A stretch of DNA of 59,722 nt from Ketobacteraceae bacterium (GCA_033722575.1 JAWVYU010000001.1:1-59722); one strand, 5' to 3'; positions 33,542 to 51,325 are shown, counted from the first letter of the stretch. Notes: generated from the sequence alone by a model not told the origin. Numbers and translations: made by a program.

Positions 33542-36271
33542 TTACTGATTGATCAGACTATACTGGTTTTTGGACAGCTGATAGGTCTCCACCTTTCCTT
33601 GTCCACACCAGTCAACCTGCAGTGAGACATGACCCGGGTACTGGTCCAGCCCGAACAGCAGACGCTGGTCGGATTGCGCTACCAGTCCGTTAGATGCCAT
33701 CACTTCACGATACTGCATGGGCAAATCCGTGGAATCTTCATACACCAGGGTGGCCTTGGTGCCCACTGCATCCCGGTTACAGGTAGTGCCGTTACCCACC
33801 AGTTTTACGCCGGCCCACTGCTTGTCTTTGGAATCGTTCCGGTAAATGCCCAGGGGAGCGAAGGGCTGTGATACCAGTACGTCCAGGTCACCATCGTTGT
33901 CGAGGTCGACGGTGGCAATACCACGGGCCACTTCGGTGTCGCTCCATCCCACCTGGTCTGCAGCATCCACGAAGTAATCGCCGGTGTTCAGATAAACCCG
34001 TTTCTTGTCGTGGGGATAGATACAACGGCCCCGCAGGTCTGCGTACCGGTCAGCATAGCTGTGGACTTCCGGGCCGGTGAGGGCAATCTTGTCATTCCAG
34101 TACCAGTAGTCCGGACAACCTTCATAAAGCTCGTCGTAATTGTCATTCACCATGCCGTTGGCCTGAAGAATATCCAGACGACCGTCACGGTCAATATCTG
34201 CCGCGGCTGCACCCCAGCCGAAACGGTTTTCATTCAGGGCGTTCAGTGCCATGGCACGGTCTTCCATACCGTAAGGGCCTTCGGTATCCAGCGTGCCCTT
34301 GTTAATCCACAGCATGGAGCCTTCTGCCTGGAGCGCCACGTGTACGTTGGATACATAAACATCCAGCAGGCCGTCGCTGTTGAAGTCTGCCATGGTGGCG
34401 TTCATGCCTTTATAGGTATCACGGCCCATTTCACCCACGAAGCGGCCTTTGAGTTGTTTGAACCTGCGGCCTTCTTCGCTGATAAACAGCTGATCGGGAC
34501 CAAAATCGTTGGCCAGGTAAATATCGGGCCATCCGTCTTTGTTCAGGTCACCTACGGCGTGGTCCAGAGTCCAGCGGGTACCGGTGTAACCCCAGGCTTC
34601 ATTATCCTGTGCCACGAATCCCTGGCCGTTGTTCAGGAAAATAATGTTTTCACCACCATTATCGGCGTTGTGCCAGGTGCGGTGCATGAAGTGTACGCCG
34701 CGACGGTCGCCTTCATATTCCGGCTCCGGCAGATCAAAAATATTGAAATAGCGGGTGTCTTCATAATCCGGGAATTTCACTTGCAATGAGTTGGCTACCA
34801 GCAGGTCCAGCAGACCATCCTGGTTCAGGTCAGCGGCAGTGGCGCTCATCGAGTTGGTGTAGGCTAATACGTTGGCTTCACCGGTTACATCAACAAAGCC
34901 GAGGGTGCCGGATTCACTCAGGGTGTTCTGCAGCAGGCGTCCGTAACCAAAACCGGTTACCACGTAAAGGTCCTTGTCGCCATCGTTGTCGTAGTCAAAC
35001 CACAGGCCGCCAGAGGGCAGGCCATTCTCGCGGAAATTCTTGACGTAATCGTTCAGCGCAGGCAGCGGGAAGCGCTCAAAGCTGAAGCCGCCATTGTTGA
35101 TATACAGCGCAACGCGGGCTTCCTGGGTTTTCAGCGGGTAGCTGATAAAGAAATCCTGGTCACCGTCGTTGTCAACATCCGCCACGGCTACGCCATCACC
35201 CTGTGCCAGTATCCACTTGCTGAGGTGCTGAACTCTCGGGTCTACCTGAGTCAGGGTATCACCCGGCTCCGAAAGAATACCCAGGGATTCCGCCTCGATC
35301 TTGGTGAATTTGAAGCCCGGATCGGCTACCGGACTGTAAGTGTGACCGATGTTATAGAGGGCAACGCCCATCAGGCCCACCAGCGGTATACCTGCCAGCC
35401 GGGGCAGATAGCCTTTGAAGCTGTCCATAAAAGAATGCTGCGGATTGTGCTTTTTGAATTCATACCAGCGATAGAAATACATCAGGCAGTAGAATACGAA
35501 GCCTGCCTTGAACAGGGTGGAAAGCGATTCGAACTTATGAAGTGCCAGATCGAAAAAGCTGATAAAAAAGGCCATGAAGATCTGTCCTTTGGTGGATCGC
35601 GGCGAGGTTGCGGGATCCGTAATCATAAAGAAGGTGAACAGATAGAAAGCCGGTGATGTAATGGTACCCATGATTATGGTTTCAGGGGGTACGTGGTGTT
35701 GCGTGATATAACCGCGAATAAAAAGCGTGAGGGTATAGAAACCCAGGAACGAAATAATCAGCGGATTTCGGTTAATCCGGAATACAAACAGGATTAGTGC
35801 AGCCGTTACCACAAACGCCGAGAAAGCGGTGTAGCCACCCCACTGATAGGCCGGAGCGGGACTGATCATTCCGCCCCCAATGGTCACTGCTGTTAACAGG
35901 CCAAACAGATTGGGGTTAAAAATATGCCGGCCATTCACGGTGATCAGATATTTTGATGCCACCGCGAAAAAGGCAGGAATCATCGGGAACCAGATACCGT
36001 GCGCGGTATTCACCAGTATGCTCAGACCAAAACCGGTAATGGCTGAGCTGAGAGGAAACAATACTTTCCGGCGGAAGATAATGGAAAATATTGTATCAAG
36101 GGCACAGGTAGTGCCCACGATCACAGCGATCTGGCCAAGGCTCCGGTTAAAGCCCAGGACGGTGACGCCCAGGATAACGTATGTTATCAGTATGGCGACA
36201 AATGGAAGACGAGGATCATTCCTGGTGGGAAATCGGTCCCAGGTGATCCCTCCGATGGTTGCGGCAGTCAT
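33542..36271 (-). CDS. membrane-anchored FG-GAP/VCBP-repeat protein, CRTAC1/ASPIC-UnbV type, with an RnfD/NqrB-like N-terminal membrane domain
   Basis: 909-aa ORF. About 330 aa of polytopic N-terminus containing GRHIFNPNLFG (RnfD/NqrB-like). Then seven Dx(D/N)xDGxxD blades (DVDNDGDQD, DYDNDGDKD, DLNQDGLLD, DLNKDGWPD, DFNSDGLLD, DIDRDGRLD, DLDNDGDLD). The tail is UnbV/ASPIC-like (NRDAVGTKATLVY...LLFGL). Confidence 0.7.
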   Translation of the reverse strand: MTAATIGGITWDRFPTRNDPRLPFVAILITYVILGVTVLGFNRSLGQIAVIVGTTCALDTIFSIIFRRKVLFPLSSAITGFGLSILVNTAHGIWFPMIPAFFAVASKYLITVNGRHIFNPNLFGLLTAVTIGGGMISPAPAYQWGGYTAFSAFVVTAALILFVFRINRNPLIISFLGFYTLTLFIRGYITQHHVPPETIIMGTITSPAFYLFTFFMITDPATSPRSTKGQIFMAFFISFFDLALHKFESLSTLFKAGFVFYCLMYFYRWYEFKKHNPQHSFMDSFKGYLPRLAGIPLVGLMGVALYNIGHTYSPVADPGFKFTKIEAESLGILSEPGDTLTQVDPRVQHLSKWILAQGDGVAVADVDNDGDQDFFISYPLKTQEARVALYINNGGFSFERFPLPALNDYVKNFRENGLPSGGLWFDYDNDGDKDLYVVTGFGYGRLLQNTLSESGTLGFVDVTGEANVLAYTNSMSATAADLNQDGLLDLLVANSLQVKFPDYEDTRYFNIFDLPEPEYEGDRRGVHFMHRTWHNADNGGENIIFLNNGQGFVAQDNEAWGYTGTRWTLDHAVGDLNKDGWPDIYLANDFGPDQLFISEEGRRFKQLKGRFVGEMGRDTYKGMNATMADFNSDGLLDVYVSNVHVALQAEGSMLWINKGTLDTEGPYGMEDRAMALNALNENRFGWGAAAADIDRDGRLDILQANGMVNDNYDELYEGCPDYWYWNDKIALTGPEVHSYADRYADLRGRCIYPHDKKRVYLNTGDYFVDAADQVGWSDTEVARGIATVDLDNDGDLDVLVSQPFAPLGIYRNDSKDKQWAGVKLVGNGTTCNRDAVGTKATLVYEDSTDLPMQYREVMASNGLVAQSDQRLLFGLDQYPGHVSLQVDWCGQGKVETYQLSKNQYSLINQ

Positions 36272-36311
36272 TTTCTTGCTCCTATAAGTTTAGGGTGATA
36301 AAGGGATTCAT

Positions 36312-37301
36312 TCATACAGTTCGGTTTGGCACAGAGTCGACAAATGCCTGAAACGGGTCTTTCGACCTGATTTCATTCATAAAACTGAACATCTCGACGT
36401 TGGTAATATTCCCGGTGGTTGTATCTGACAATCGCTTCTGGACTTCTGGCAGGTTATGCCAGGGCACTGCAGGGAACAGGTGGTGTTCTGTGTGCAGGTT
36501 GAAGTGATAACAGGTGATCGCCGATAACCAGGGGGGCATCAGCGCAGTACGGCAGTGGCTGTCCTGCTCATGCAAAGGCACCGCATCAGGGTGGGAGTCG
36601 CTGATGTAGGGGTACAGACCCGAGTGATGGGTCAGGTTAATGCATTCAAAAAAGATATAGAAAAAGATAAAAGCCGGTGCGATATAGGCCAGCGCGGATT
36701 CGCCCAGCAGAACAACGAGGCCCACCAGCGCTGCGGCGGTTATCAGGGTGGAGATCGCTCCGTACAGCGCGTTGCTGGTATTCCCGGCCCGCCATTGCTT
36801 GAACGGATACATCCAGAATGCCGCAACGACGCCCCCTAGTGCGGCCAATGGAATACGCAGCTTCCAGAGAACCAACAGCAGGTTCCGCATGATGGGGCCG
36901 TATTCCTTGATGGAGAGCAGGCCGACGGAGGTCGGGTCCTTGTCGACCACGCCAACCCACTTATGATGCTCGAAGTGGGCGTTGCGCCAGCAGAGGTAGG
37001 GTACGGCACACAAGCACCCGAAGAGGGTGCCGAACATGGTGTTGAGGCTTTTCTGACCGAACAGGGTGCCATGACCGCATTCATGAGTCAGCACAAAGCA
37101 GCGGAACAGGCTCAGGCCCAGCAGCGCCTGCAGTATCCAGTAGCCCGGTGAAAACAGTTCCACCAGCCACAAGCCATAAATAATCGCGGCCATCACGATC
37201 AGCTCTGTGGTGGTGGTGACGAACGCCCGGGTGTTGCTCTTGCGGAACAAGCCGTCAGACATCAGGGATTTTCGTATGGTTACATATTCTGCGCGGTTCA
37301 T
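36312..37301 (-). CDS. membrane fatty-acid desaturase family protein
   Basis: 329-aa ORF with three His boxes (HECGHGT, HFEHHKW, HTEHHLFP) and hydrophobic segments. Confidence 0.85.
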   Translation of the reverse strand: MNRAEYVTIRKSLMSDGLFRKSNTRAFVTTTTELIVMAAIIYGLWLVELFSPGYWILQALLGLSLFRCFVLTHECGHGTLFGQKSLNTMFGTLFGCLCAVPYLCWRNAHFEHHKWVGVVDKDPTSVGLLSIKEYGPIMRNLLLVLWKLRIPLAALGGVVAAFWMYPFKQWRAGNTSNALYGAISTLITAAALVGLVVLLGESALAYIAPAFIFFYIFFECINLTHHSGLYPYISDSHPDAVPLHEQDSHCRTALMPPWLSAITCYHFNLHTEHHLFPAVPWHNLPEVQKRLSDTTTGNITNVEMFSFMNEIRSKDPFQAFVDSVPNRTV

Positions 37302-37318: not shown

Positions 37319-38449
37319 CTAGTGCAGCGCCATTTCAAAGCCAGGGTTTATGCTGGAAAAATTCTCGATATCAAAGCTGTGGTCATTACCCCGGAAGCCG
37401 TAAAGATCCATAGGTACCTTTTGCACTCTGAAACCGGATAAGCCTTTCTCCAGCTTGCTTTGCTGGGGCACGAATGCCGCGATAAAGTGATAATTCCTGC
37501 CGCGGTGGTGGTTGTAGATACCACGCAGCAGCTGATTCATCAGTTCCGGATCATCATTTTCAATTTCAAGATGAGTCAGCCCCAGCAGATTGAAACACTC
37601 CCCCGGTTTGGGCATGGGGGCATGGCCTCTCAGCCTGGCTTCAAGATCGATACCCTTGCGGATCAGCTTCATGGTTCCGCGGTAACCGTGCACCCTGCTG
37701 CGGCGCAGGCTGTCGGCGTTATTCCACGGGGCGGCACAGGCAACAATCTTTCCTTCCTTGTTCCTGATGGCAAAGAAATTGTTCACGCCGAAATCCGGCC
37801 AGCTTTCGATCCGGTTACGCAGCATGGCTTCATCTATAACAAAGCCGAAAGCTCTTTTTCTCGCCTGTTTCCCAAGAAATGCTGCCAGCTCGGGAATGTC
37901 GCTATCCTGTAACTGGTTCACTTCCAGCGTTTGCGGAATGGCACGGTTCAGTACCTGGAGGTTTACCATGTGATAAGGCGTTATCAGCGATGCGTTGGCC
38001 ATGCGCTGAGCGTACTGGGCGCTGGCATTGGAGCGCATGATGGAGAAATAGAACACATCAACCGGCTCTTGCCGTTTTATGTAGTCGATAAATATCGAAA
38101 TACTCTGGGGAAACACCTTGCCGCTGCGAAATCGCTCCGCCATGCGCAGGTCACAAAGGTATCCGATGGATTTTATTTCTCCGTTAAGCCAGCCTTTACG
38201 GACAACCACCGAGCAGCAGCCGGCAATGCGCTCCTGTTCGGCCAGGTTGTCGGACTTGTCTTCCAGCACTATGGTATAGGGGGTGCCGGAATGGAGTTTC
38301 CGCAGGGCGAAAAAATCCGGCTCACGCTCTTCAGTGAGAATCAGATCCGACGGCATACTGACACTGCGAAACAGTGCGCAGAGGCTGTCATTGTCCTCTG
38401 GTTGTGCGAGCCGCAGACGCCACTCCGGCTGGTCGAAGACTATATCCAA
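37319..38449 (-). CDS. hypothetical protein (possibly a GNAT-fold acyltransferase; unverified)
   Basis: 376-aa ORF. The TTG start lies inside the last codons of the Rieske gene. The N-terminal pattern RLRLAQPEDNDSLCALFRSV ... CCSVVVRKGWLNGEIKSIGYLCDLRMAERFRSGK is reminiscent of GNAT beta1-beta4/alpha3. I am not sure of any family assignment. Confidence 0.45.
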   Translation of the reverse strand: MDIVFDQPEWRLRLAQPEDNDSLCALFRSVSMPSDLILTEEREPDFFALRKLHSGTPYTIVLEDKSDNLAEQERIAGCCSVVVRKGWLNGEIKSIGYLCDLRMAERFRSGKVFPQSISIFIDYIKRQEPVDVFYFSIMRSNASAQYAQRMANASLITPYHMVNLQVLNRAIPQTLEVNQLQDSDIPELAAFLGKQARKRAFGFVIDEAMLRNRIESWPDFGVNNFFAIRNKEGKIVACAAPWNNADSLRRSRVHGYRGTMKLIRKGIDLEARLRGHAPMPKPGECFNLLGLTHLEIENDDPELMNQLLRGIYNHHRGRNYHFIAAFVPQQSKLEKGLSGFRVQKVPMDLYGFRGNDHSFDIENFSSINPGFEMALH

Positions 38450-39501
38450 AAGTCCATCTCCCGTTTCATGGGTTTGGGGCGTGGCCCCTCACAGCCGGAC
38501 TCTTCCCATTCCCGCAATGACTCGATAAACAGGTGCAATGTGTCAGCCGGCGTACTCTTGAAATCGGGCTCTTCTTCCTGCAGTGAGGCTCCCTGATTGG
38601 CCATGATCTCTACATCCTGCTCGATCACCTGACGGGTGTACCAGGGCAGCCAGTATTTCGCGGTGGGCTGCAATATGCCCAGGTTGTAACTGATGCATGT
38701 ATACACCTGGGATTTGAAGTCGCTGACAGGCGTGGAGGTGCTGGTAATCACAAAACCGCGCTCGTTGTTGCCAAACACATAGTCCACGCGGGTGTTGTTG
38801 GGCATATAGAAATTATCGGTGTGATAGAGCGGCAGTTTTTTGGGGTTCAGCAAGCGCTCTGCAAAACCAATGGCATCCTCTGTCTGGTCATAGGTCACCA
38901 GTACTGAATTTTCGGTGCGCTCAACGGTGGCTTTCACCAGCTTTTTGGTCCGGTCACGGAACCAGCCCTCGTGCACGAACACCGTATGAGGCACGTCCAT
39001 GAAATTCTCTGCCAGATGGGTAACGCCATTGTCGAATTCGGTGACCATGTAATAGGTTTTCCAGCCTTTTACGCCGTAAAACGGCATGGGGAAGGGCTTT
39101 TTCTCCGGATCGGGCTCCTTGCTTTCGCCCATCCAGACCCATACCAGTCCTTCCTGCTCGATAACGGGAAAACGCTCAACCTTGCGATTGGAAAAGGGCT
39201 TGCCGTTCTCACCCTCAGAGGGCACGTTCACGCAGTTGCCTTCGCTGTCGAAGGTCCAGCCGTGGTAAGGGCATTTGATGCAGTTTTTCTTGACTTTGCC
39301 TTCACTGAGGAAAACATTGCGGTGTGAACAGCGATCGCGCAGCACAGAGACTTCACCCTGTTTGTTGCGCCATAACACCAGCCGGGTCTCCAGAATGGTG
39401 CTGGAGTGGGGCTTGTCCACTTTCAAATCCTCTGATGTACAGGCAACGTACCAGTACTCGCGCAGTGCTCCAACGCGCTCTCTCATAGGAATCTTTTTCA
39501 T
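38440..39501 (-). CDS. Rieske [2Fe-2S] non-heme-iron oxygenase (alpha-subunit type, PAO/KshA-like)
   Basis: 353-aa ORF. Rieske motif CSHRNVFLSEGKVKKNCIKCPYHGW (CxH-x17-CxxH). Mononuclear iron motif ENFMDVPHTVFVH (E-x3-D-x2-H-x4-H). Confidence 0.85.
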   Translation of the reverse strand: MKKIPMRERVGALREYWYVACTSEDLKVDKPHSSTILETRLVLWRNKQGEVSVLRDRCSHRNVFLSEGKVKKNCIKCPYHGWTFDSEGNCVNVPSEGENGKPFSNRKVERFPVIEQEGLVWVWMGESKEPDPEKKPFPMPFYGVKGWKTYYMVTEFDNGVTHLAENFMDVPHTVFVHEGWFRDRTKKLVKATVERTENSVLVTYDQTEDAIGFAERLLNPKKLPLYHTDNFYMPNNTRVDYVFGNNERGFVITSTSTPVSDFKSQVYTCISYNLGILQPTAKYWLPWYTRQVIEQDVEIMANQGASLQEEEPDFKSTPADTLHLFIESLREWEESGCEGPRPKPMKREMDFWI

Positions 39502-41117
39502 AACTTACTACTCCGTAAAGAAAAAACCTGATGCCAGTCATAACGCGCATCCAGATGCGTTGGTTTGATGTCGCCGATCCGTTGACCCTTTGATGACAGG
39601 TGTTCCTGATATTGCTTCCAGCCTTCCTTAACGGGCTGGATATCCATCGGACCAAGCTGACCCCGCTGCCTGCAGTAGCTGTAGTGGTGGCCGGTTTCCA
39701 GGTACTGCTCCACAATGGTGGTGAATTCTTTCAGCTTTTCAGTGGGTCCGTCGGACTCAATAAAAAGTGTGTAGTGCAGAGGCGGCTTTTTGCGAGGGGC
39801 TATCAGGGCGAAGCGGGTATTGATACCGGTTTCGCGGCTGGCCAGTTTGATTGCCTTGTCCGCCTGGTTGGCGTGAATTTTTTCCCCGCAAAGATCACTC
39901 ACGCGATCCAGCTTGTTGACATAGGTCAGTTCCGGCGTATTGCGGCGGAAACCGGTGCACTCAACAATGTCTTTCAGGTGATACCGGTAGAGTCCGCCAG
40001 AGGTGGTAATAATGGGGGAATACACGCCGCCTCTTTCCAGCTCGTGTGCCAACCTGGGAGCCGCGCTTTCATTGTTAAGGTCAATGAACTCATAGAAATG
40101 GCTGTTCACTGCCAGCACACCACCGTGGCTGATAAGATCGGACTCTGCATCCTGAGGGGTCTTGTCCAGGGGTATGGTGATCACTCCCTCTGTGGCCAGT
40201 AAACCTTTCCCCTGAATAAATACCTCCGGAAAATAATCCCTCAGGCGCGTGCTGAAATCAGCGGAGATACCGTCACTCCAGCAGGAAATCACTTTAAGAT
40301 TGGGCCACAGGGTTTCACCGTTCACGCCAGAGCGGGAGCGGTCTATGGCGGTATACAACCGGCGCCGGGCGTCCCGCGGCAGATCCTCCGCCAGGGCGTC
40401 TGTGTTGGCCTGGATATATTCCATCAGGGCCAGCAGGAAAGTGGGGCTCCATACCGAGATAAAGCCAAGGTTTTTCTCCTGCAGAAGGTGCCTGCAGGTC
40501 TGGTGCTTCCATTCACGGTCACAGGTGATGTGCCGCACACTGGAGGGCACACAAAGCATCTGTTCAAGGGACCATTTGGCCACCGGATTGAAATACTCGG
40601 TTTCTTCCTCGAAGCCAACGGGCACACCGCCGGACGTGGTGGTTTCATTATGGGAAACCGGCGATACGGACCAGTAGGATTTGGTACCGATCAGACCCGG
40701 AATTCGTGTGTAAAGGTTGTGTAGCCAGGGGTTGGTGGCAGCAGAGAACTCGTCCAGCAGCGCCTGGGTATAAGGAATGTACTTGGTGGTCGATGTGGAT
40801 CCGCCGGAACGCTCCAGCATCATCACCGGGTCGGACGTCAGCACATTCTGGTAACCCGCACATATCTGCTGAATGTAGGGCTCGATATCATCGTAACCCA
40901 CCACCGGTACCTTTTTGCGGAATTCCGCAATGGAGCTTATGCCGGAAAAACCCAGCTTGCTGCCATAGACCGTGGCAGCATTCTTCGCCAGAACACGGTC
41001 AAGTTTCCGGGACTGAATGTCGGCGGGCTTTCTGATGGCACGGCTGTAGCGCCGTGAATCGCGCAGCAGGCTGGCGATGTAAGCCCTTTGCAGGACGCTC
41101 AGGATTGTACTGGCCAT
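39498..41117 (-). CDS. GH3-family adenylate-forming acyl-acid amido synthetase
   Basis: 539-aa ORF. GH3 motifs: ERSGGSTSTTKYIPYT (compare SSGTTxGxxKxIP), GLLATEG (compare YxSSE) and GGLYRYHLKDIVEC (compare GLYRYRxGDxV). The stop overlaps the Rieske start (ATGA). Confidence 0.85.
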   Translation of the reverse strand: MASTILSVLQRAYIASLLRDSRRYSRAIRKPADIQSRKLDRVLAKNAATVYGSKLGFSGISSIAEFRKKVPVVGYDDIEPYIQQICAGYQNVLTSDPVMMLERSGGSTSTTKYIPYTQALLDEFSAATNPWLHNLYTRIPGLIGTKSYWSVSPVSHNETTTSGGVPVGFEEETEYFNPVAKWSLEQMLCVPSSVRHITCDREWKHQTCRHLLQEKNLGFISVWSPTFLLALMEYIQANTDALAEDLPRDARRRLYTAIDRSRSGVNGETLWPNLKVISCWSDGISADFSTRLRDYFPEVFIQGKGLLATEGVITIPLDKTPQDAESDLISHGGVLAVNSHFYEFIDLNNESAAPRLAHELERGGVYSPIITTSGGLYRYHLKDIVECTGFRRNTPELTYVNKLDRVSDLCGEKIHANQADKAIKLASRETGINTRFALIAPRKKPPLHYTLFIESDGPTEKLKEFTTIVEQYLETGHHYSYCRQRGQLGPMDIQPVKEGWKQYQEHLSSKGQRIGDIKPTHLDARYDWHQVFSLRSSKL

Positions 41118-41896
41118 GGTTTCAGAATGGTCTCATTGAGTTTTTTGAATGACTTTTTCATGATTTTTGCGGGGTAGCTCAACGCCAGCGTCGCATCGAT
41201 CCGGCCGATGCAACAGAGCTCGTCGCCCTGGGCGTGGCCCTGGTTTTTCTCCAGAAAAAACCGGATATCGGCTTGGTTGAGCATGCTCTGGTCGATAGGC
41301 GCAATGCCGCCTTTCAGCTTGCCCATGGGTTGCTTGAAAGACAGTACACCTTTCTCTGGTATCCAGCTGTCGGCGAACATGGAGGTGGCAAGGTGGTTCA
41401 GAATCGCTTTTTCCTGAGCCGGGGTTGGCCGGTCATGGCGTGGCCAGTAATTGGGAAAGTTCCGACTGAGCAGCAAATAGGTTTTATAACCTTTGGAAAT
41501 AAGAAACCAGTACACATCCTTGGTGGGATGCTGCAACTTGGTTTTAATAATGTACCTGAAGAAGGTTTTCTGGAGGGCTGTCTGACCCCAGTAGGCTTCG
41601 TCAATAATGGTGTCGCCGGAATACACAGCAACAAAGTCTTTCCCGTTGACCGCGTCATCAAACACCTTCAGGGTGGAAAAGCCTTTCAGTTGACGAAGAT
41701 TCGGGTCGAACAGCAGGATGACATCTTTCTTGTTGGAAAGGTCTGACTCGAAGCGGCTGCGCTCGATATCCTCGTAGTAGTTTTTGAAAAGGTCCCACAT
41801 GGCTTCGATAAGCTCACGGTCAAGCGCGTCTACGGGGCAGACCCGTGCCTTGAGTGTTCCTGTCGATGTCGGATTGAGTGTTGTGGTGACAGCCAT
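41099..41896 (-). CDS. hypothetical protein, first gene of the GH3 operon
   Basis: 265-aa ORF with AGGAG 6 nt upstream of the ATG. It overlaps the GH3 start by 19 nt. No family recognised; FLISKGYKTYLLLSRNFPNYWPR is the most distinctive segment. Two 60-nt lines I counted by hand were 38% and 45% GC. Confidence 0.6.
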   Translation of the reverse strand: MAVTTTLNPTSTGTLKARVCPVDALDRELIEAMWDLFKNYYEDIERSRFESDLSNKKDVILLFDPNLRQLKGFSTLKVFDDAVNGKDFVAVYSGDTIIDEAYWGQTALQKTFFRYIIKTKLQHPTKDVYWFLISKGYKTYLLLSRNFPNYWPRHDRPTPAQEKAILNHLATSMFADSWIPEKGVLSFKQPMGKLKGGIAPIDQSMLNQADIRFFLEKNQGHAQGDELCCIGRIDATLALSYPAKIMKKSFKKLNETILKPWPVQS

Positions 41897-41925
41897 CAGC
41901 AGCTCCTATTTACCTTTCGTTCATG

Positions 41926-41945
41926 GTTTTCGGATATTCGAAAAC
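41926..41945. promoter_or_regulatory. 7-6-7 palindrome in the 5' region of the GH3 operon
   Basis: GTTTTCG (41926-41932), GATATT, then CGAAAAC (41939-41945). It lies 30-50 nt upstream of the 265-aa gene start on the minus strand. Confidence 0.35.
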
Positions 41946-42385
41946 GAAAATAAGGGTCACAGTCAGTGCTAAGTGCTATATGTTGAATGGTTTATCCAAA
42001 GCGCCGGATAAATATAACAAAAACCTTTAAAAAACTGGCTTTAAATACGGTTTAGTTTTGTAATTGGATTCAAATACTTCCATAAATCACTGATATATAT
42101 AAATTATATTTTCTTGCAGTTTAAAAAATACTCAATTTTTCGGTGTTGTGACCGGTAGTCCATTTACACGGAATTACAGTGGAATCATCATTTTCCATTT
42201 TTAATTGGTACTTTCGTTTAGAAAAGTTCCGTTGCGAAAAGTTGCAATGTTGTTCTTTTGTGAATATGTGAAAATTAGGTATGACATTCTAGGTTTTATC
42301 TATATGATTCCCCGCAATTGGCATAGGTCAAGTTAAGAGCCTGTGTTGACTGTTTTACCTCGCGCACACAATCAGAGCCTGATTA

Positions 42386-42430
42386 GCGCCCGTTTCCGGG
42401 TGGCCGACGGGCGTTTGTCTGTTTTTCATG
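42386..42430 (+). terminator. intrinsic-terminator-like hairpin plus T-tract in the leader of the methyltransferase operon
   Basis: CGCCCGT (42387-42393) pairs with ACGGGCG (42407-42413), with an inner CGG/CCG extension. TTTGTCTGTTTTT follows. It ends about 45 nt before the ICMT-like start. Confidence 0.45.
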
Positions 42431-42432
42431 AT

Positions 42433-42451: not shown

Positions 42452-42476
42452 GGCTGACTGCATCTTGGTGTGCGTT

Positions 42477-43055
42477 ATGGATCTTTCTCTTGTTGTTCTT
42501 ATAGAGGCATGTTTTTTATATGCCGGAACCCTGCCAGCAGTGTTTTTCAAGTCTGGCGCCAGGAAGAACCTGAAATGGTTTGTTTCCTGTATCCCCATGT
42601 TTGTGCTTCCGTTTCTGTTGCTGTTTCTGTTTTTTACCCGTGATGCGTACCCGCTGGAAGGCTGGCTGGCTTATGGCGCCACGATCCTGGCGGTGATCAG
42701 CTGCCTGGCATCGGTCCTGCTGATCAACTGGGCGGTGCTCACCCATGCCGAGCCGATACCGCTCTGGCATCAGGAATCGCACCAGATGCCGTCCACCATT
42801 ATTGTTAGCGGCCCCTACGGAGTGGTCAGACACCCGTTCTATCTGGCCTACATACTGCTTTACTTTGCGACCTTCCTGGCAACCCTTCACTGGTTGGCTG
42901 CGGCATTACTCATTTGGGGTATTGCGGCCAACTATCTCACTGCCAGAAAAGAAGAGCTGACCATTATGGCATCCGGTATTGCCGCTGATTACGGTCAGTA
43001 CCGGGAGCGGGTCGGCATGTTATTTCCAAAACTCAGCCGTAGTCGGAGGGCATGA
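42477..43055 (+). CDS. ICMT/PEMT-family integral-membrane carboxyl methyltransferase
   Basis: Polytopic ORF of about 192 aa from the ATG at 42477; the tracked ORF starts at a TTG at 42465. The C-terminal GPYGVVRHPFYLAYILLYF matches the RHPxY motif of isoprenylcysteine carboxyl / phospholipid methyltransferase-like enzymes. Confidence 0.72.
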   Translation: MDLSLVVLIEACFLYAGTLPAVFFKSGARKNLKWFVSCIPMFVLPFLLLFLFFTRDAYPLEGWLAYGATILAVISCLASVLLINWAVLTHAEPIPLWHQESHQMPSTIIVSGPYGVVRHPFYLAYILLYFATFLATLHWLAAALLIWGIAANYLTARKEELTIMASGIAADYGQYRERVGMLFPKLSRSRRA

Positions 43056-44428: not shown

Positions 44429-45946
44429 ATGAACAGCTTTGATGAGTATGTGGACTATGATGCTGCCGGTCTGGCAGAACTGGTTGCCAGGGGCGAGCTA
44501 TCGCCTCTGGATATGGTTAAGGCCGCAGGGTGCCAGATTGACAAATGGAATCCCCGGATCAATGCGCTGACTTTCCATGATGCCAGGCAGGCTGCGGAAT
44601 ACGCAGACCGGAAGGATCTTTCCGGGACTGATTACAAAGGCGTGCCCTTTCTGGTGAAGGACCTGGTGACAGAGGTGAAGGGCTTTCCCCATACCTGTGG
44701 GAGCAAGGCGCTGGCTTCCTATGTTTCGGCCGAAGACTGCGAACTGGTGAAACGTTACCGTCAGGCGGGTTTCAATATTATGGGCGCTACCAATACAGCG
44801 GAGTTCGGCTTGTTGCCGGTGACCGAATCGGCCCACACAGGCGTCACCAGAAACCCCTGGAACACCGAATGCAACGCCGGTGGCTCCTCCGGAGGTGCCG
44901 CTGCGGCTGTCGCCTGCGGCATCGTGCCGGTGGCTGGCGCCACCGATGGGGGTGGTTCCATTCGCATCCCTGCGGCCTTTACCGGCACCTTTGGTTTCAA
45001 GCCCAGTCGTGGTCTGGTACCGCAGGATCCCATGGGTGAGCCCTGGGACGGCGCGGCCGTAACCCATGTGATCTCCCGGACCGTGCGTGACTCTTTTCAG
45101 GTACTGAATAAAACCCTGGGAATGACGGCATCGGCACCCTACGCACCTGTATCCGGCATCGAATCCGGCAATAAGGCTCTATCGCCTCGCGGTAAAAAAA
45201 TAGGTGTCTGCTTTACGTCGCCTTTATCCATGCCGGTATCGGAAAATAACCTGAAAGCACTGAGGAAGTGTGTGGCTGCGCTTGAAGCCAGGGGCTACGA
45301 GATTGTAGAAATAGACCGGTTGTATAATGGTTACGACCTGCTGGACAGCTTCTGCCCCGTGTTGTTCGGTCAGGTATCGGCGGATCTGCAAACCATTGGG
45401 GCGAAGCTGGGCAAGCCAGTTACCCGAAAAGATGTGGAGCCTGCCACCTGGCTGATTTCCGAGATTGGCCGGCATGTTTCGGCCCGTGATTTCGCCCTGG
45501 CCAAACAGCGTTGGGCGGAATTCCGCTTATTGATGGCAACCTATTTTTGCGAGTATGACTTTATTCTCACGCCGGTGACAGCGATCGATGCGCCACTGAA
45601 TGGTGAACTGGTACCGGACCCGGCTGAGCTCAAGGCCCTGAAATTCGTCAGCGCCATAAAGCTGGAGCGCTACCTGCCCAACAGTCGGCAATTCCGGGAA
45701 AACTTTTACCAGTCTTTTGAGCCATTTCCTTTTACGCTGATGGCTAATATCACAGGCATTCCTGCATTTTCAGCGCCTGTCTGGGTTGATGGGTCTGATA
45801 TGCCCTCTGCTGTTCAGGCCATGGGGCCCATTGGCTCCGATGCGGAGCTGATGAATCTGGCGCTGACAATTGAGCAGGAACTGCCCTGGATTGATACCTA
45901 TAAACGACTGCACCAATTGACAGATAACCAAGAGAAACCAGCATGA
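44429..45946 (+). CDS. amidase-signature family amidase
   Basis: 505-aa ORF with GGSSGGAAAAVA and the catalytic Lys context VPFLVKDL. It is a paralogue of gatA in this window. Confidence 0.9.
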   Translation: MNSFDEYVDYDAAGLAELVARGELSPLDMVKAAGCQIDKWNPRINALTFHDARQAAEYADRKDLSGTDYKGVPFLVKDLVTEVKGFPHTCGSKALASYVSAEDCELVKRYRQAGFNIMGATNTAEFGLLPVTESAHTGVTRNPWNTECNAGGSSGGAAAAVACGIVPVAGATDGGGSIRIPAAFTGTFGFKPSRGLVPQDPMGEPWDGAAVTHVISRTVRDSFQVLNKTLGMTASAPYAPVSGIESGNKALSPRGKKIGVCFTSPLSMPVSENNLKALRKCVAALEARGYEIVEIDRLYNGYDLLDSFCPVLFGQVSADLQTIGAKLGKPVTRKDVEPATWLISEIGRHVSARDFALAKQRWAEFRLLMATYFCEYDFILTPVTAIDAPLNGELVPDPAELKALKFVSAIKLERYLPNSRQFRENFYQSFEPFPFTLMANITGIPAFSAPVWVDGSDMPSAVQAMGPIGSDAELMNLALTIEQELPWIDTYKRLHQLTDNQEKPA

Positions 45947-46755
45947 GATATTTGTTCAGCCTGATGTTTGTGTTGGGTGCCGTGATTTCTGCGCCTTCAA
46001 TGGCCCAGACGGCGGAGCAAAAAGCGCTTGATATCGCCAGACAGGCGGACAAGCAGGATACCGGCTATGTGGATGAAAGAGTTGATGTGGACATGATCCT
46101 GATCCACAACTCCGGTAAAAAACTGACGCGGGAATCCCACTGGCGGATCAAGGAGCGTCGCACCGACGGTGATATGCGCCTGTATGTATTTCACAGCCCT
46201 GAAGATCAGCGGGGGGCGGCAATTCTTTCCCATGGTCATATCGACAGGGCGGACGACCAGTGGATATACCTGCCCAGCCTGGGGCGCTCCCTGATGATCA
46301 GTAACGAAAACCGGTCCGGATCATTTGTTGGCAGTGAGTTTTCCTATGAAGATATTAATTCACAGGAGATTCCCAAGTTTGAATGGCGTTATCTGCGGGA
46401 AGATACTCTGCGGGGTCGCAAGGTTCACGTTTCAGAGCGTCGCCCCAGGGATCCCTTCTCCGGTTACAGCAAGCAGCACTTATGGGTTGACCAGGAAAAC
46501 CTGTATACCATGCGGATTGAAAGTTTTGACCGCAAAGGCACGCATTTCAAAACCGCAGAAATTACCGGATGGAAGCTCCTGCAGGGATTCTGGCGGCAGG
46601 CGAAAATAGAAATGACCAATCATATCAATAAAAACGTATCCATACTGGAGTTCAGTAACCGGTCGATCAATACCGGGCTTGAAGCGGAAGAGTTTTCTGT
46701 AGAGGGATTCGCGACCGGTGAAACATTATTTACCAGGGGAAGAGGCGGGAAATAA
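45943..46755 (+). CDS. periplasmic LolA-like outer-membrane lipoprotein-sorting-type protein
   Basis: 270-aa ORF with a Sec signal peptide (MRYLFSLMFVLGAVISAPSMA/QT). The size and the position directly upstream of COG1033 RND genes are typical of the LolA-like partners of such exporters. The start overlaps the amidase stop (ATGA). Confidence 0.55.
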   Translation: MRYLFSLMFVLGAVISAPSMAQTAEQKALDIARQADKQDTGYVDERVDVDMILIHNSGKKLTRESHWRIKERRTDGDMRLYVFHSPEDQRGAAILSHGHIDRADDQWIYLPSLGRSLMISNENRSGSFVGSEFSYEDINSQEIPKFEWRYLREDTLRGRKVHVSERRPRDPFSGYSKQHLWVDQENLYTMRIESFDRKGTHFKTAEITGWKLLQGFWRQAKIEMTNHINKNVSILEFSNRSINTGLEAEEFSVEGFATGETLFTRGRGGK

Positions 46756-46756
46756 T

Positions 46757-49030
46757 ATGGTAGACAATATTGCACAATACCTTGTAGACAAGCGAAAGCT
46801 GCTGTTCTGGGTTTCCCTGCTGGTTGTAACACTGATTGCAGTGGGTGCAAAAAATATCTGGATACAGAGCGATTACAAGGCCTTTTTCTCGGACACTAAC
46901 CCGCAACTGCTGGCCCATCGTAATATTCAGGATACCTACACCGATACGGATAACCTGTTGTTTATTGTTGATGCCAAAGGCCAGTCCGTATTTTCAGAGC
47001 AAGGCCTGGACCTGGTGGGGGACATCACGGAAAAAGCCTGGACAACGCCCTACTCATTGCGGGTGGATTCGGTAACCAATTACCAGTACAGCTATGGCGA
47101 TGAAGACGAGCTGATAGTGGAAGCGCTGCTGGACATTGGTGGCGGTGATAATCCGGACTATCAGAAAATCAGAAACATCGCCCTGAGTGAACCCCTGCTG
47201 AGAAACAATCTGATATCGCCGGATGGCACGGTCACCGCAGTTAATGTGATGCTGGGGCTGCCGGACCCTGCGGACATGGCAGTGCGGGAAGTGGTTGCCT
47301 ACGGCCGCGATATCGTCAGCTCTCTCGAAGAGAAGTACCCCGGATTTGATATTTATCTGCAGGGTACTGCTGCAGTGAACCATGCGTTCATTGAATCCTC
47401 GGAAAAAGACGCCATGACCCTTATGCCGGTGATGTTCATGGTGATTCTGATTATCCTGGTACTCTGGTTGCGTTCGGTAAAGGGCACGTTGATCACCTTG
47501 CTGGTCATTAATTTAAGCTCCGCAGTGGCGGTGGGTTTTTGTGGCTGGCTGAATATTGCCATCAACCAGATTAATGTCATTGCCCCCACGGTGATAATGA
47601 CGCTGGCTATTTGCGACTGCGTTCACCTGCTGGTGTCCTATTTTGAAAGGCTCAGTCACGGCATGGAACCGGAAGCGGCCATGAAGGAAAGCCTGACTGC
47701 CAACCTCCAGCCGGTGTTTCTGACCAGCTTTACTACCGCCATCGGTTTTCTTTGCATCAATTTCAGTGAGTCACCGCCACTGGCGGAAATGGGAACCATC
47801 ACGGCCGTTGGTGTCATTGCCGCGTTCTGGCTGTCGGTAGCGCTGATTCCGTTCCTGGGAATCAGGTTTATCAAAGGGTCCAACGGGGTTAACCCGGCCG
47901 CTTCAAAAGTGGTTACTGCCTTTTCCGGTTTTCTGTTGCGGCATAAAAACCCCGTGTTCTGGGTAACGCTGCTGGTTTCCGCTTTGCTGGTAACTTTCCT
48001 GTTCAGAAATGATATCGATGATAACTACATCAAGTATTTCAGCCACGATACGGAAATCAGGCAGGCTGCGCAGTTTACCCAGGATAACCTGACTGGTATT
48101 GATACCCTGGCGTTTTCGTTCTCCAGTGGCAAGGAGAATGGGATTGCCAATCCGGAGTTTCTTGAAGCGGTGCAGGCTTTCGTAACCTGGGCCCAAGCCC
48201 AGCCGGAAGTGGTGCATGTGGACAGCTACATTGACATACTGAAGCGCCTGAACAAGATCATGCACGGTGACCAGGCCGAATGGTACCGGATTCCGGATGA
48301 GCGGGAGCTGGCATCACAGTATACCCTGCTGTATGAATTATCCCTGCCGTTCGGGCTGGACCTCAACAATCAGATCAGTTTCGATAAATCCTCACTGCTG
48401 GTTAATCTGCGGCTGAAAGTGGATAAAGCCAAGGAGATCATTGCACTTGATGAGCGTGCTGGGGAATGGCTGAAAACGAACTATCCGGAGATACATACCA
48501 ACGGAGCGAGCGTTTCGCTGATGTTTGCCCATCTGGGCAAGAGCAATATTTCCAATATGATGTACGGCAATGTGGTGGGTATTCTGCTGATCAGCCTGAC
48601 GCTGATGCTGGCCCTGCGCTCTTTCAAATATGGGCTGATCAGCCTGTTGCCCAATGCCATGCCTGCCGCCGTTGCCCTGGGATTGTGGGGTATCTTTGTG
48701 GCAGAAGTGAATATTGCGGTGGCAGTGGTGTTCTCCGTTACCCTGGGTATTGTGGTGGACGATACCGTGCACTTTCTCTCCAAATATATCAAGGCACGCC
48801 GGGATCTGGGCAAGTCTTCCGAAGAGTCGGTGGTCTATGCCTTTGAACAGGTGGGCAAGGCGCTGGTGATTACATCCGTGGTACTGGCCATCGGCTTCTT
48901 TGTGCTGGCGCTGTCAGACTTTACCGTGAACAGCTCAATGGGCCTGATGGTGGGTGTCACCATTATTGTTGCCCTGCTGTTTGATTTCCTGTTTTTACCG
49001 ACATTGCTGATGAAAGTGGATCGAAAATAG
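46757..49030 (+). CDS. RND-superfamily exporter, COG1033/MMPL (HpnN-like) type
   Basis: 757 aa from the ATG at 46757, one nt after the LolA-like stop. Two blocks of about 6 TM helices each follow a periplasmic domain. Conserved LGIVVDDTVHF in the last TM bundle. Confidence 0.8.
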   Translation: MVDNIAQYLVDKRKLLFWVSLLVVTLIAVGAKNIWIQSDYKAFFSDTNPQLLAHRNIQDTYTDTDNLLFIVDAKGQSVFSEQGLDLVGDITEKAWTTPYSLRVDSVTNYQYSYGDEDELIVEALLDIGGGDNPDYQKIRNIALSEPLLRNNLISPDGTVTAVNVMLGLPDPADMAVREVVAYGRDIVSSLEEKYPGFDIYLQGTAAVNHAFIESSEKDAMTLMPVMFMVILIILVLWLRSVKGTLITLLVINLSSAVAVGFCGWLNIAINQINVIAPTVIMTLAICDCVHLLVSYFERLSHGMEPEAAMKESLTANLQPVFLTSFTTAIGFLCINFSESPPLAEMGTITAVGVIAAFWLSVALIPFLGIRFIKGSNGVNPAASKVVTAFSGFLLRHKNPVFWVTLLVSALLVTFLFRNDIDDNYIKYFSHDTEIRQAAQFTQDNLTGIDTLAFSFSSGKENGIANPEFLEAVQAFVTWAQAQPEVVHVDSYIDILKRLNKIMHGDQAEWYRIPDERELASQYTLLYELSLPFGLDLNNQISFDKSSLLVNLRLKVDKAKEIIALDERAGEWLKTNYPEIHTNGASVSLMFAHLGKSNISNMMYGNVVGILLISLTLMLALRSFKYGLISLLPNAMPAAVALGLWGIFVAEVNIAVAVVFSVTLGIVVDDTVHFLSKYIKARRDLGKSSEESVVYAFEQVGKALVITSVVLAIGFFVLALSDFTVNSSMGLMVGVTIIVALLFDFLFLPTLLMKVDRK

Positions 49031-51325
49031 ATGTTAGCTTCCCTTGTGGATACGTTGTTTCGGAAAAGAAAGCTGCTGTCTGTGCTGGCAATGCTATTGC
49101 TGGTGGCGGGCAGTGCGTTCCTTGCCAGACTCTCTCTGGATAATCATTTCAGCATTTTTTTTGATGCTCAGGATGTGCGTCTGCAGGAGTACAACAAAAT
49201 CCAGAAGGAATTTGTCAGAACTGACAATGTGCTGGTCGCCATTGCGCCGGCAGAAGGAGAGGTGTTCAATCCGGCATTTGTTACCAGGTTGCGGAGGTTT
49301 ACCGAAGCATCCTGGCAGGTTCCCTTTGTGAAAAGGGTGGACTCCATCACCAATTATCAGCACGTGTTCAGTACCGAGGGGGGCATTACCATTCGCTCAC
49401 TGGCCAGTGGTGATGGGGATAACCTGGATATGGACTTGCTGCGGGAACGAACCCTCAGCGAAAAGGATCTGGTGGGAGCCTTGATAGATCCTCAGGGGCA
49501 GGTAACGGGCGTTAACCTGCTGCTGGATATGCCGAAAGATCCTGCGGCGCCAGCAGACGTGATGTCCGCTGTCCGCCAGCTGATGGATGAGCATTTTTTG
49601 CCGGAAGACCAGGTGCACGTGCATGGTATTGTGGCGCTGAACAATGCGTTCATGGAGGCCACAGAAAGAGACGGCATGACGCTGATGCCCCTGATGTTTC
49701 TGGTGATCAGCGTGCTGCTGATGGTGCTGCTGGGATCGTGGCGTGCCGCAGCGGGTGTGCTGCTGGTGGTGACCCTGGGTTCCTGGTCGGTGGTGGTGGC
49801 CATTGCCGCTTTCGGCTTTGACCTGAACATGGTGAATGTAGTTGCCATCACCATTGTCATGACCCTGGCCGTGGCGGATTGCGTGCACCTGGTGTCCACT
49901 TATCAGGAGGCGCTGAAAGAGGGCATGACGCCGGAAGTGGCTGCCCGTCAAAGCCTGTCTGTCAATTTCGTGCCGGTACTGATCACCAGCCTGACCACCG
50001 CCATTGGTTTTCTGGCGCTGCTGTTCAGCAATTCTCCGCCTATCCGTGAGCTGGGAATCGTTACCGCCACGGGCGTTCTGAGCGTTTTTGTATTCAGCGT
50101 AACCGTGTTCGTGTGGCTATTGCCGGTGATCTCGGTAAAACATAGAGAAGCCCCGGGATTTATGGACCAGTGGATGCACAAGCTGGCAGAAGGGGTACTG
50201 GGCCGCAGGGTTCTGGTGGTGGTCGGGTTTGCGCTGGTATCACCGATATTGGTGTTCCTGGCCTTTACCAATGAAATCAATGACCATGCCAGCCACTATT
50301 TTTCCAAGGATGCGGAGTTTGCAAAGAGTACCGCATTTATTTCCGATCATTTAACGGGCCTGGACACGCTGTCGTTTGAGTTGGCGACAGGTGAAGGCTA
50401 CGGTATTAATGAGGTGGGCTATATTGAAAAACTGTCAGCGTTCGGTGAGTGGCTGGCATCCCAGCCGGAAGTGGTTCATGTGAAATCCTACGTGGAAGTG
50501 CTGAAGCGCATCAATCAATACACCCACGGTGGCGATGCTGATTATTATCGCTTGCCGGACAGTAAAAAGCAGGCGTCACAGTTTTTGTTGCTTTACAGCA
50601 TGTCCACCACGTTCGGCCTCGGAATTGAGGACAGGGTTAATTTCGATCAGAGTGCCACCCGGATTGAGGCGCGTCTGGCGATTGATAATCCCAGGGAAAT
50701 GCTGTCGCTGACACAGAAAGCAGAGGCATGGGTAGAGCAAAACTGGCCGGGTGTGCAGTTGACAAGTTCCAGTGTGCCTAAGCTGTTCGCGGATATCGGT
50801 ATCGAAAATATCCGAAGTATGCTGCAGGGCAATTTCTTTGCGGTGCTGGCCATTGCGCTGTTACTTGTGGTGGCTTTTGGTTCCTGGCGTTTCGGCCTGG
50901 TGAGCGTGCTGCCAAACCTTGTGCCCGCTCTGGTGGCCCTGGGAATCTGGGCTCTCATCAGCGCCAAGATCAACCTGGCGGCCTCCATTGTATTCGCGGT
51001 TACCCTGGGCATTATTGTGGATGACTCCGTGCACTTCATCCATAAATACCTGCTGGCTCTGAGGGGCGGCAGATCACCTGAGGATGCCATCCGTTACGCC
51101 TTTGCCAATGTGGGCAGAGCCCTGGTGGTCACCACTCTGGTCCTTGGCCTTGGCTTTGCCATGCTGGGTTTCTCCGACTTCGCCGTAAACAGCGTTATGG
51201 GCATACTGGTATGCATTACGCTGGTGGTGGCACTGGTGGTGGATTTGCTGTTTTTGCCGCTGGTGTTGTTGTGGCTGGGCAAACGGAAACTGCTTACCGG
51301 GGATAAAATATCTGCCTCATCCTGA
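49031..51325 (+). CDS. RND-superfamily exporter, COG1033/MMPL type (tandem paralogue)
   Basis: 764-aa ORF starting immediately after the previous stop. It is colinear with the upstream exporter (KRKLL..., VDS(V/I)TNYQ, LGI(V/I)VDD(T/S)VHF, LSDF(T/A)VNS). Confidence 0.8.
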   Translation: MLASLVDTLFRKRKLLSVLAMLLLVAGSAFLARLSLDNHFSIFFDAQDVRLQEYNKIQKEFVRTDNVLVAIAPAEGEVFNPAFVTRLRRFTEASWQVPFVKRVDSITNYQHVFSTEGGITIRSLASGDGDNLDMDLLRERTLSEKDLVGALIDPQGQVTGVNLLLDMPKDPAAPADVMSAVRQLMDEHFLPEDQVHVHGIVALNNAFMEATERDGMTLMPLMFLVISVLLMVLLGSWRAAAGVLLVVTLGSWSVVVAIAAFGFDLNMVNVVAITIVMTLAVADCVHLVSTYQEALKEGMTPEVAARQSLSVNFVPVLITSLTTAIGFLALLFSNSPPIRELGIVTATGVLSVFVFSVTVFVWLLPVISVKHREAPGFMDQWMHKLAEGVLGRRVLVVVGFALVSPILVFLAFTNEINDHASHYFSKDAEFAKSTAFISDHLTGLDTLSFELATGEGYGINEVGYIEKLSAFGEWLASQPEVVHVKSYVEVLKRINQYTHGGDADYYRLPDSKKQASQFLLLYSMSTTFGLGIEDRVNFDQSATRIEARLAIDNPREMLSLTQKAEAWVEQNWPGVQLTSSSVPKLFADIGIENIRSMLQGNFFAVLAIALLLVVAFGSWRFGLVSVLPNLVPALVALGIWALISAKINLAASIVFAVTLGIIVDDSVHFIHKYLLALRGGRSPEDAIRYAFANVGRALVVTTLVLGLGFAMLGFSDFAVNSVMGILVCITLVVALVVDLLFLPLVLLWLGKRKLLTGDKISASS

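Follow-up and report, generated by a model that had tools for sequence, protein, structure and literature searches.

A conserved GH3/GNAT gene cassette in a Ketobacteraceae bacterium and the amide-linked lipid that it may make and export

What does a bacterium make with an adenylating ligase, two acyltransferase-like proteins, three kinds of oxygenase, an amidase, a membrane methyltransferase and two export pumps encoded side by side? This question is raised by a locus of 12 open reading frames (ORFs) at positions 33542-51325 of a 59,722-nucleotide stretch of DNA from a Ketobacteraceae bacterium (GCA_033722575.1, JAWVYU010000001.1:1-59722), referred to here at its full length as the window. 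The genes form two divergent arms, and an initial annotation had proposed that all 12 belong to one undescribed system that makes and exports a lipid-like or acyl-amido metabolite. Taken as one conserved system, the 12 genes do not hold together across genomes. The minus arm does: as its recurrence in other bacteria indicates, it is a genuine conserved pathway cassette with a 265-aa GNAT-fold protein and a GH3-family ligase at its core, usually accompanied by a second, 376-aa GNAT-fold protein. Around this core the locus could well be a biosynthesis-and-export system for an amide-linked lipid or amphiphile, a reading to which we give about an even chance of being right.

A profile of the GH3 protein was run against one genome per GTDB species and returned 586 relatives, and the top 80 loci among them were retained; eight further loci came from exact-protein look-ups, and genes were counted by tblastn in the resulting 88. 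The 265-aa GNAT gene stands beside the GH3 gene in 76 of these loci, and in 61 of the 88 it lies directly upstream on the same strand, mostly overlapping it. The 376-aa GNAT gene is present in 59 and a Rieske oxygenase gene in 43. Genes of the FA_desaturase family occur in 20 loci, one to three per locus and in 18 cases together with the Rieske gene; B12-radical-SAM genes, again one to three per locus, occur in 18, as do homologues of the RnfD-like/FG-GAP membrane protein that closes the minus arm. Restricting the count to the 42 loci with full 10-kb flanks leaves the 265-aa GNAT in 38, the 376-aa GNAT in 34 and the Rieske gene in 25. The closest relative of the window (L081) has its six minus-arm genes in the identical order, with identities that range from 56% for the 376-aa GNAT to 78% for the RnfD-like/FG-GAP protein, the most conserved cassette protein in this comparison. 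Because gene set and gene order recur in this way across many phyla, chance adjacency is not a sufficient explanation, and the co-localisation expected in the initial annotation is borne out for the minus arm. A 213-aa membrane protein without a Pfam family recurs in 14 of the 88 loci (L044:4197-4838 and homologues) and is absent from the window; the idea that it might be the counterpart of the ICMT-like protein of the window's plus arm was rejected, there being no similarity between the two.

By record title, the carriers come from at least a dozen phyla overall, with Pseudomonadota, Myxococcota, Bdellovibrionota, Acidobacteriota, Planctomycetota, Gemmatimonadota, Chloroflexota, Clostridia, Fibrobacterota, Verrucomicrobiota, Nitrospirales and Sericytochromatia represented; such title-based counts are approximate, since two of the titles, a Nanoarchaeota archaeon (L067) and an Enterobacteriaceae (L028), look implausible for the gene content found under them. 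Among cultured organisms the cassette is carried by Haliangium ochraceum, a Myxococcus isolate and Aquipseudomonas campi. The complete genome of the last contains an eight-gene cassette with three desaturases, followed by a gene of the 3-beta-hydroxysteroid dehydrogenase/epimerase family (L092, CP053697.2, ~2.577-2.586 Mb). In one metagenome-assembled genome (L091:4139-7505), a second GH3 paralogue of 449 aa lies between two desaturases, divergent from the main operon of radical SAM, GNAT, GH3, Rieske and GNAT genes.

The anchor of the cassette in the window is the gene at 39498-41117 on the minus strand, which encodes a GH3-family adenylating acyl-acid amido synthetase. Its N-terminal, central and C-terminal GH3 domains score 155.4, 65.9 and 52.5 bits in Pfam against a cut-off of 23.6, and the family profile finds the solved structures of JAR1, GH3.15, GH3.12 and others at E-values between 2.5e-34 and 7e-24. 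The nucleotide-binding motif SGGS is found at residue 104, and in an alignment with 20 homologues the residues E102, G106 and S107 are invariant or nearly so.

Its two most frequent companions had been listed as unknowns, and here structure prediction was informative. The 265-aa protein (41099-41896, minus strand) is the near-obligate partner of GH3 and belongs to no Pfam family; its AlphaFold2 model (pLDDT 89.5), which like that of the 376-aa protein was built with homologue alignments, consists of an N-terminal GNAT fold and a C-terminal extension, and Foldseek matches it to AAC(2')-Ia, NatD and others at E ~5e-7. The 376-aa protein (37319-38449, minus strand; pLDDT 91.7) has a tandem-GNAT acyltransferase fold, the best full-length Foldseek match of which is N-myristoyltransferase (NMT), with a template-modelling (TM) score of 0.58-0.64 over ~390 aligned columns and E ~1e-12. 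Neither window protein has any Pfam match at E ≤0.01, and the 265-aa profile matched no solved structure; the 376-aa profile weakly matches one solved GNAT (E 4e-4), and PF00583 is present in some of its homologues. That the two are paralogues of each other was considered and rejected (hhalign probability 8.7%). An exhaustive profile search gives 2275 clusters at 50% identity for the 265-aa family, and the source-given names listed for its homologues are all 'hypothetical protein'. Judged by their predicted models, both proteins are GNAT-fold acyltransferases; an acyl-amide product fits because both of the former unknowns have acyltransferase folds.

The remaining minus-arm genes encode oxidative enzymes and a membrane protein. 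At 38440-39501 on the minus strand lies a Rieske [2Fe-2S] non-haem-iron oxygenase of the VanA/KshA/SdmA class, represented by an alpha-subunit only (PF00355 at 92 bits, with VanA_C), in which the CxH...CxxH and DxxHxxxxH motifs are intact and the best solved relatives of which are DdmC, SxtT, NdmA and KshA. The gene at 36312-37301 on the same strand encodes a membrane di-iron enzyme of the fatty-acid-desaturase/hydroxylase family (PF00487, 136 bits) that keeps three His boxes, HECGH, HFEHH and HTEHH. The last gene of the arm (33542-36271, minus strand) encodes a membrane protein of 909 aa with an N-terminal polytopic RnfD/NqrB-like domain, periplasmic FG-GAP repeats and a C-terminal UnbV_ASPIC domain (Pfam: FG-GAP_3 118 bits, NQR2_RnfD_RnfE 40.3 bits, UnbV_ASPIC 37.2 bits), and we infer that it handles the product in the periplasm. 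An identity as an RnfD that binds flavin mononucleotide was rejected, as the SGAT-type attachment motif is absent. With GH3 and the GNAT models of two transferase folds, the minus arm thus comprises three bond-forming enzymes, two oxygenases and, in the membrane, a protein whose periplasmic part is a beta-propeller.

The oxidative genes of the cassette are not distributed at random among its carriers. Desaturase and radical-SAM genes share none of the 88 loci (desaturase only 20, radical SAM only 18, neither 50; Fisher p 0.009), and Rieske and radical-SAM genes meet in 2 (Rieske only 41, radical SAM only 16, neither 29; p 4e-4). Rieske and desaturase genes go together (both 18, Rieske only 25, desaturase only 2, neither 43; p 2e-5), all three tests counting related genomes as independent. 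The radical-SAM versions are found in Clostridia, Anaerolineales, Sedimentisphaerales and Phycisphaeraceae, and also in Oligoflexia and some Myxococcota. On these gene counts there are two near-exclusive tailoring sets, the Rieske oxygenase with membrane desaturases on the one side and the B12-radical-SAM enzymes on the other, and they would represent oxygen-dependent and oxygen-independent ways of tailoring one core product, the chemistry of which need not match.

The link of the cassette to membranes and to export comes from gene fusions and from the neighbours of GH3. One ORF of 1062 aa (L028:5072-8260) encodes an MMPL-type RND pump that carries a domain of the 265-aa family at its C-terminus (34% identity, E 1e-42); downstream of it come desaturase, GH3 and Rieske genes, together with the 213-aa membrane protein, the 376-aa GNAT protein and a MacB-type ABC pair. 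Two further fusions of MMPL with a C-terminal domain of this kind, among the top 150 hits of the 265-aa-family profile search, are P0434 and P0330 (L094:7751-10816), the latter immediately upstream of GH3, between a B12-radical-SAM gene and GH3. Among these hits the same domain is also fused to an MFS transporter in P0455, to PAP2 and FA_desaturase domains in the triple fusion P0331 (L093:1776-4082), which lies between the GH3 and Rieske genes, to Cupin_8/JmjC hydroxylase domains in P0325 and P0171, and to an Lnb_N domain in P0338. Unfused MMPL pumps follow GH3 in L007 and stand beside the cassette in L008. Rosetta-stone fusions of this kind suggest that the GNAT partner acts at the membrane on lipid-like substrates and passes its product to a transporter, and since transporters of the MMPL and MFS types are recruited or fused in other lineages, export appears to be a recurrent need of the pathway. 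The lipid and export role proposed at the outset draws its support from these relatives; the link of the window's LolA-like protein and RND pumps to the cassette is local to one genome.

On the plus strand, the first gene (42465-43055, with the in-frame ATG at 42477 as its likely start) encodes a putative membrane methyltransferase of the ICMT/PEMT superfamily. Matches to both families are present, and both fall just below the Pfam cut-offs (PEMT 23.6 against 25, ICMT 18.5 against 24); the NCBIfam isoprenylcysteine methyltransferase model is matched at E 1.8e-11 and 44 bits against a cut-off of 160, and the orthologue in L084 gives an unmarked PEMT match. It is followed by a cytochrome P450 (43052-44401; PF00067, 240 bits) with an intact haem-binding Cys motif, FGGGAHKCIG, the closest solved relative of which is CYP120A1 (2ve3, E 4.5e-55), which we take to be a retinoic-acid hydroxylase. 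Next come an amidase of the amidase-signature family (44429-45946; PF01425, 268 bits), which has an intact GGSSGG motif and NylA and aryl acylamidase as its closest solved relatives, and a secreted LolA-like periplasmic carrier with a signal peptide and without a lipobox cysteine (45943-46755; PF17131, 168.6 bits against a cut-off of 30). The arm ends with two RND transporters of the MMPL/HAE3 type, RND1 (46757-49030) and its paralogue RND2 (49031-51325), which score 144 and 104.9 bits with PF03176 against a cut-off of 20.5 and are 40% identical across 705 residues. Both stay below the curated models, with 156 and 145 bits against 351.9 for the HAE3 model TIGR00921 and 124 and 90 bits for the HpnN-like model TIGR03480, the HpnN curated cut-offs being 751.85 or 1100 bits. 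Because the amidase and LolA-like genes overlap by 4 nt and the LolA-like, RND1 and RND2 genes abut, these four genes appear to be co-translated and probably share one transcript.

How, then, could these parts work together? In the mechanism that we favour, GH3 would take a free, hydrophobic carboxylic acid (a fatty acid being the most likely), adenylate it and couple it to an amine or amino acid, as OlsH does with ornithine. At the membrane's inner face the two GNAT-fold enzymes would attach further groups, acyl or aminoacyl, and the Rieske oxygenase and the membrane di-iron desaturase/hydroxylase would oxidise or desaturate the chain and might supply a hydroxyl for the second acylation. In this lineage the ICMT-like enzyme would methylate a free carboxylate, the P450 would oxidise the product and the amidase would trim or recycle it, before the LolA-like carrier and the two HAE3-type pumps take the product out of the inner membrane, perhaps with help from the RnfD-like/FG-GAP protein on the periplasmic side.

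Several findings weigh against this mechanism. The Rieske oxygenase, desaturase and P450 have relatives with non-lipid or isoprenoid substrates (SxtT and DdmC, GntB, and CYP120A1, respectively), and in Pfam none of the locus proteins is an acyl carrier protein, a fatty-acid synthase or a reductase partner. The window GH3 is far from OlsH, with 48.1 bits against a cut-off of 620. Furthermore, no amidase, ICMT or LolA-like homologue lies within 10 kb of GH3 in any of the 80 genome loci, and the membership of the window's RND pumps would follow from operon structure in one genome only.

These last two points bear on an explanation that we consider unlikely, although it deserves a serious hearing, namely that the minus arm, probably with the ICMT-like, P450 and amidase genes, forms one pathway, and that the LolA-like and RND genes form a generic downstream exporter of hydrophobic compounds that serves other substrates. 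In the loci L084 and L085, the GH3 proteins of which are 51% identical to that of the window, orthologues of the ICMT-like protein, P450 and amidase (45%, 67% and 42% identical) stand divergently opposite the 265-aa gene, GH3 and Rieske genes just as in the window, and the next gene after the amidase is unrelated and lies on the other strand. In L081 a further desaturase gene takes the divergent position, and P450s of 25-28% identity lie downstream of the cassette in seven Acidobacteriota loci. No LolA-like homologue stands near GH3 in any of the 88 loci. A conserved LolA-RND module tied to GH3 was rejected: when metagenomes were scanned with the LolA-like protein, only one locus came up, L089, in which the RND-LolA pair occurs without cassette genes. 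The RND pumps that do accompany the cassette elsewhere form a subfamily of their own, 39-46% identical among themselves, to which RND1 and RND2 are only 23-25% identical and of which they are not orthologues; together with the paralogy of the two pumps at 40% identity, this indicates that the window's pumps are analogous recruits tied in by translational coupling alone. That coupling is what speaks against an independent exporter, the amidase/LolA overlap and the RND1/RND2 abutment pointing to one transcript, and MMPL and MFS transporters have been recruited or fused to the cassette in other lineages. Since homologues of the plus-arm genes are scarce beside GH3, the 12-gene set is a composite, a lineage-specific assembly around a conserved core; of the plus arm, the ICMT-P450-amidase trio shares its position opposite the cassette with L084 and L085, and beside GH3 a LolA-RND-RND set occurs only in the window.

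If the locus does make an amide, the product need not be a lipid. The substrate is not fixed by the closest solved relatives, which are CYP120A1 for the P450, NylA for the amidase and DdmC, SxtT and KshA for the Rieske oxygenase, and a small amide metabolite or signal is conceivable: GH3 would conjugate an amino-acid-derived, aromatic or isoprenoid acid, the GNATs would N-acylate it, and the transporters would secrete or import the result. In plants, GH3 enzymes act on small acids and conjugate jasmonate, indole-3-acetic acid and benzoates, among others; the nearest Rieske relatives are DdmC and SxtT, the nearest solved P450 is CYP120A1, and the desaturase weakly matches GntB, a hydroxylase of free arginine. 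An organic-anion symporter of the SBF (bile-acid/Na+ symporter) family is encoded in the GH3 operon of A. campi and of a Hahellaceae metagenome-assembled genome, so that the acid substrate might be imported, or be something other than a fatty acid. Set against this are the PAP2-desaturase-GNAT fusion and the HAE3-type MMPL fusions, which imply membrane-embedded substrates, the presence of up to three membrane desaturases per locus, and the likeness of the 376-aa fold to NMT, a fatty-acyl transferase, and we regard a small non-lipid product as rather doubtful.

An amide-linked lipid or amphiphile as the product also has to be weighed against the reverse direction of metabolism, in which the P450, the Rieske enzyme, an AlkB-like hydroxylase and the amidase would degrade a hydrophobic amide or xenobiotic, with the RND pumps and LolA-like carrier in charge of uptake or efflux. 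The amidase does resemble the nylon-oligomer hydrolase NylA and aryl acylamidase, and the Rieske enzyme O- and N-demethylases, but the conserved core of a ligase and two transferase-fold proteins is anabolic, the amidase and P450 are lineage-specific additions, and Pfam finds no regulator, dehydrogenase or beta-oxidation gene in the locus, which makes catabolism or detoxification improbable. Least convincing, and in our view very improbable, is the lipidation of a protein or ribosomal peptide, in which GH3 would activate the fatty acid and the NMT-like tandem GNAT would N-acylate the target: the fold match to the eukaryotic enzyme, the B12-radical-SAM genes, which are common in peptide natural-product clusters and occur in several copies in 18 loci, and the one fusion with an Lnb_N domain would suit it, but the 376-aa protein is only ~10-12% identical to NMT and gives no NMT Pfam match, many small-molecule transferases have a tandem GNAT fold as well, and no conserved small precursor ORF was seen, the intergenic small ORFs of the window not being kept in relatives.

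The layout of the locus agrees with the initial annotation. All 12 ORFs were recovered at the coordinates first given, with 4-nt overlaps at 39498-39501, 43052-43055 and 45943-45946, longer overlaps of 10 nt at 38440-38449 and 19 nt at 41099-41117, and a zero gap between the RND1 stop and the RND2 start at 49031. The stop codon of the LolA-like gene occupies 46753-46755 and the candidate ATG of RND1 is at 46757, with GAGG upstream; a mechanical ORF list offers GTG 46718 as an alternative start. The family assignments were likewise reproduced with Pfam, from FG-GAP/UnbV_ASPIC with RnfD-like, FA_desaturase, Rieske with VanA_C and GH3 to p450, Amidase, LolA_like and two MMPL proteins. The arms diverge from an AT-rich region of 568 bp (41897-42464) in which both promoters presumably sit; its GC content is 38.4%, falling to 30.0% over 42001-42300 as had been estimated by hand, in a locus of 52.7% overall. 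When this gap was aligned with its counterparts in L084 and L081, which are equally long, no conserved block emerged, only short repeats of doubtful meaning were seen, and none of the small ORFs listed in it is conserved in relatives. Scanned at gathering thresholds, the whole window contains no Rfam family, and a search of the intergenic region at E ≤1 was equally negative. Within the gap, ~45 nt 5' of the first plus-arm gene, a terminator-like hairpin on the plus strand (42381-42419, -21.8 kcal/mol) is followed by the T-rich TTTGTCTGTTTTT and may act as an attenuator or mark where a small transcript ends.

Hairpins also border the locus, as had been noticed. On the left, a GC-rich one (33485-33517, -25.5 kcal/mol) between a convergent PhzF-like gene and the last minus-arm gene is a likely bidirectional terminator; on the right, one with a perfect 8-bp GC stem (51380-51399, -18.4 kcal/mol) lies between RND2 and a convergent superoxide dismutase gene. 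Beyond them the flanks are ordinary housekeeping DNA, with hemA-prfA, gatAB, mreB, rng, yhdP and tldD upstream and a sodB-like gene, mgtE, rapZ and ptsN downstream; they suggest a gammaproteobacterial chromosome, and the contig itself is from an ENA metagenome assembly. The AsmA-like YhdP protein (20980-25026, plus strand) and a second amidase-family protein (14184-15656, minus strand), which is GatA beside GatB, are housekeeping proteins outside the locus. Two genes upstream of the locus, a 1016-aa protein (29603-32653, plus strand) combines an NMT1/THI5-like periplasmic binding domain with PAS, GGDEF and EAL domains; no sign was seen that it regulates the locus. A PADLOC scan for anti-phage systems gave no match among ten locus proteins, the two RND transporters being left out of the scan.

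What would such a system mean beyond this genome? We tentatively propose, with somewhat less than even confidence, that the GH3/GNAT pair marks a hitherto unrecognised class of bacterial envelope lipids, or amides that resemble them, which would be spread very widely across the phylogeny and be synthesised and exported, sometimes by synthase-transporter fusions, with interchangeable oxygen-dependent and oxygen-independent tailoring, and that the window holds its most elaborate known version, to which methylation, a P450, an amidase and a LolA/RND route to the outer membrane have been added. Identifying the product would probably add a new class of lipid or amphiphile to bacterial envelope biology, would give functions to two orphan protein families, and would show whether one pathway uses Rieske/desaturase enzymes under aerobic conditions and B12-radical-SAM enzymes in their place under anaerobic ones. 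The question is directly testable because the cultured and fully sequenced A. campi carries the cassette.

Parts of the locus recall systems that are already understood. Lipid exporters of the HpnN type (HAE3/MMPL) and LolA-like/MMPL pairs are known from hopanoid and aryl-polyene clusters, and the window similarly has two MMPL pumps with sterol-sensing-like domains and a LolA-like carrier downstream of lipid-modifying genes; it differs in that hopanoid and aryl-polyene biosynthesis genes are lacking and the pumps score below the curated cut-offs. The plant GH3 enzymes JAR1, GH3.12/PBS3 and GH3.5/6 belong to the same three-domain family and share the nucleotide-binding motif, but the similarity is at profile level only, and here the gene stands in a bacterial operon with membrane enzymes, the substrate of the ligase probably not being a hormone. 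NMT is, like the 376-aa protein, a tandem GNAT of ~380 residues, and the two superpose over their full length with a TM score of ~0.6; the window protein lacks an NMT Pfam match even at E ≤10, and in contrast to NMT its acceptor is likely to be a small molecule or lipid. MprF is a lysyl-phosphatidylglycerol synthase fused to a flippase, in which a lipid made at the inner leaflet is moved outward by the same polypeptide. The RND-GNAT and MFS-GNAT fusions of the relatives join a GNAT-fold synthase domain to a transporter in a functionally analogous way, although there the transporter is MMPL/RND or MFS and not a flippase, a GH3 ligase is an obligatory neighbour, and in the window itself GNAT and pumps are separate genes on opposite arms. 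No sequence relation to MprF turned up, and no dedicated homology test was made.

The closest precedent comes from the GH3 family itself, in which bacterial ligases are numerous and almost all uncharacterised; to our knowledge a product has been assigned only to OlsH, described in 2025. Literature on GH3 together with Rieske, GNAT, radical SAM, desaturase or "auxin-responsive promoter" in bacteria yielded no description of the cassette, and the view that no characterised pathway has this combination of genes is upheld in model and literature searches, with OlsH as the relevant precedent. In Singulisphaera acidiphila, OlsH makes N-acyl-ornithine from free fatty acid, ATP and ornithine, after which OlsI acts (PMC12493201). 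What the window would share with this route is a GH3 ligase that opens amino-lipid synthesis through the ATP-dependent amide of a free fatty acid, followed by the addition of another acyl chain by a second enzyme, and the window GH3 may work similarly. Orthology to OlsH was nevertheless rejected, since the match to NF052613 stays far below its cut-off and covers only residues 21-127 at the N-terminus. The window GH3 is in a distinct clade that is far more widely distributed. An OlsI-type alpha/beta-hydrolase domain is not found among the 12 locus proteins; the partners are instead two GNAT-fold proteins, a Rieske oxygenase and desaturases, joined by transporters in some lineages. Thus the locus appears to be of a known kind, GH3-dependent synthesis of amide lipids, and what appears new is the widespread, uncharacterised GH3/GNAT cassette at its centre.

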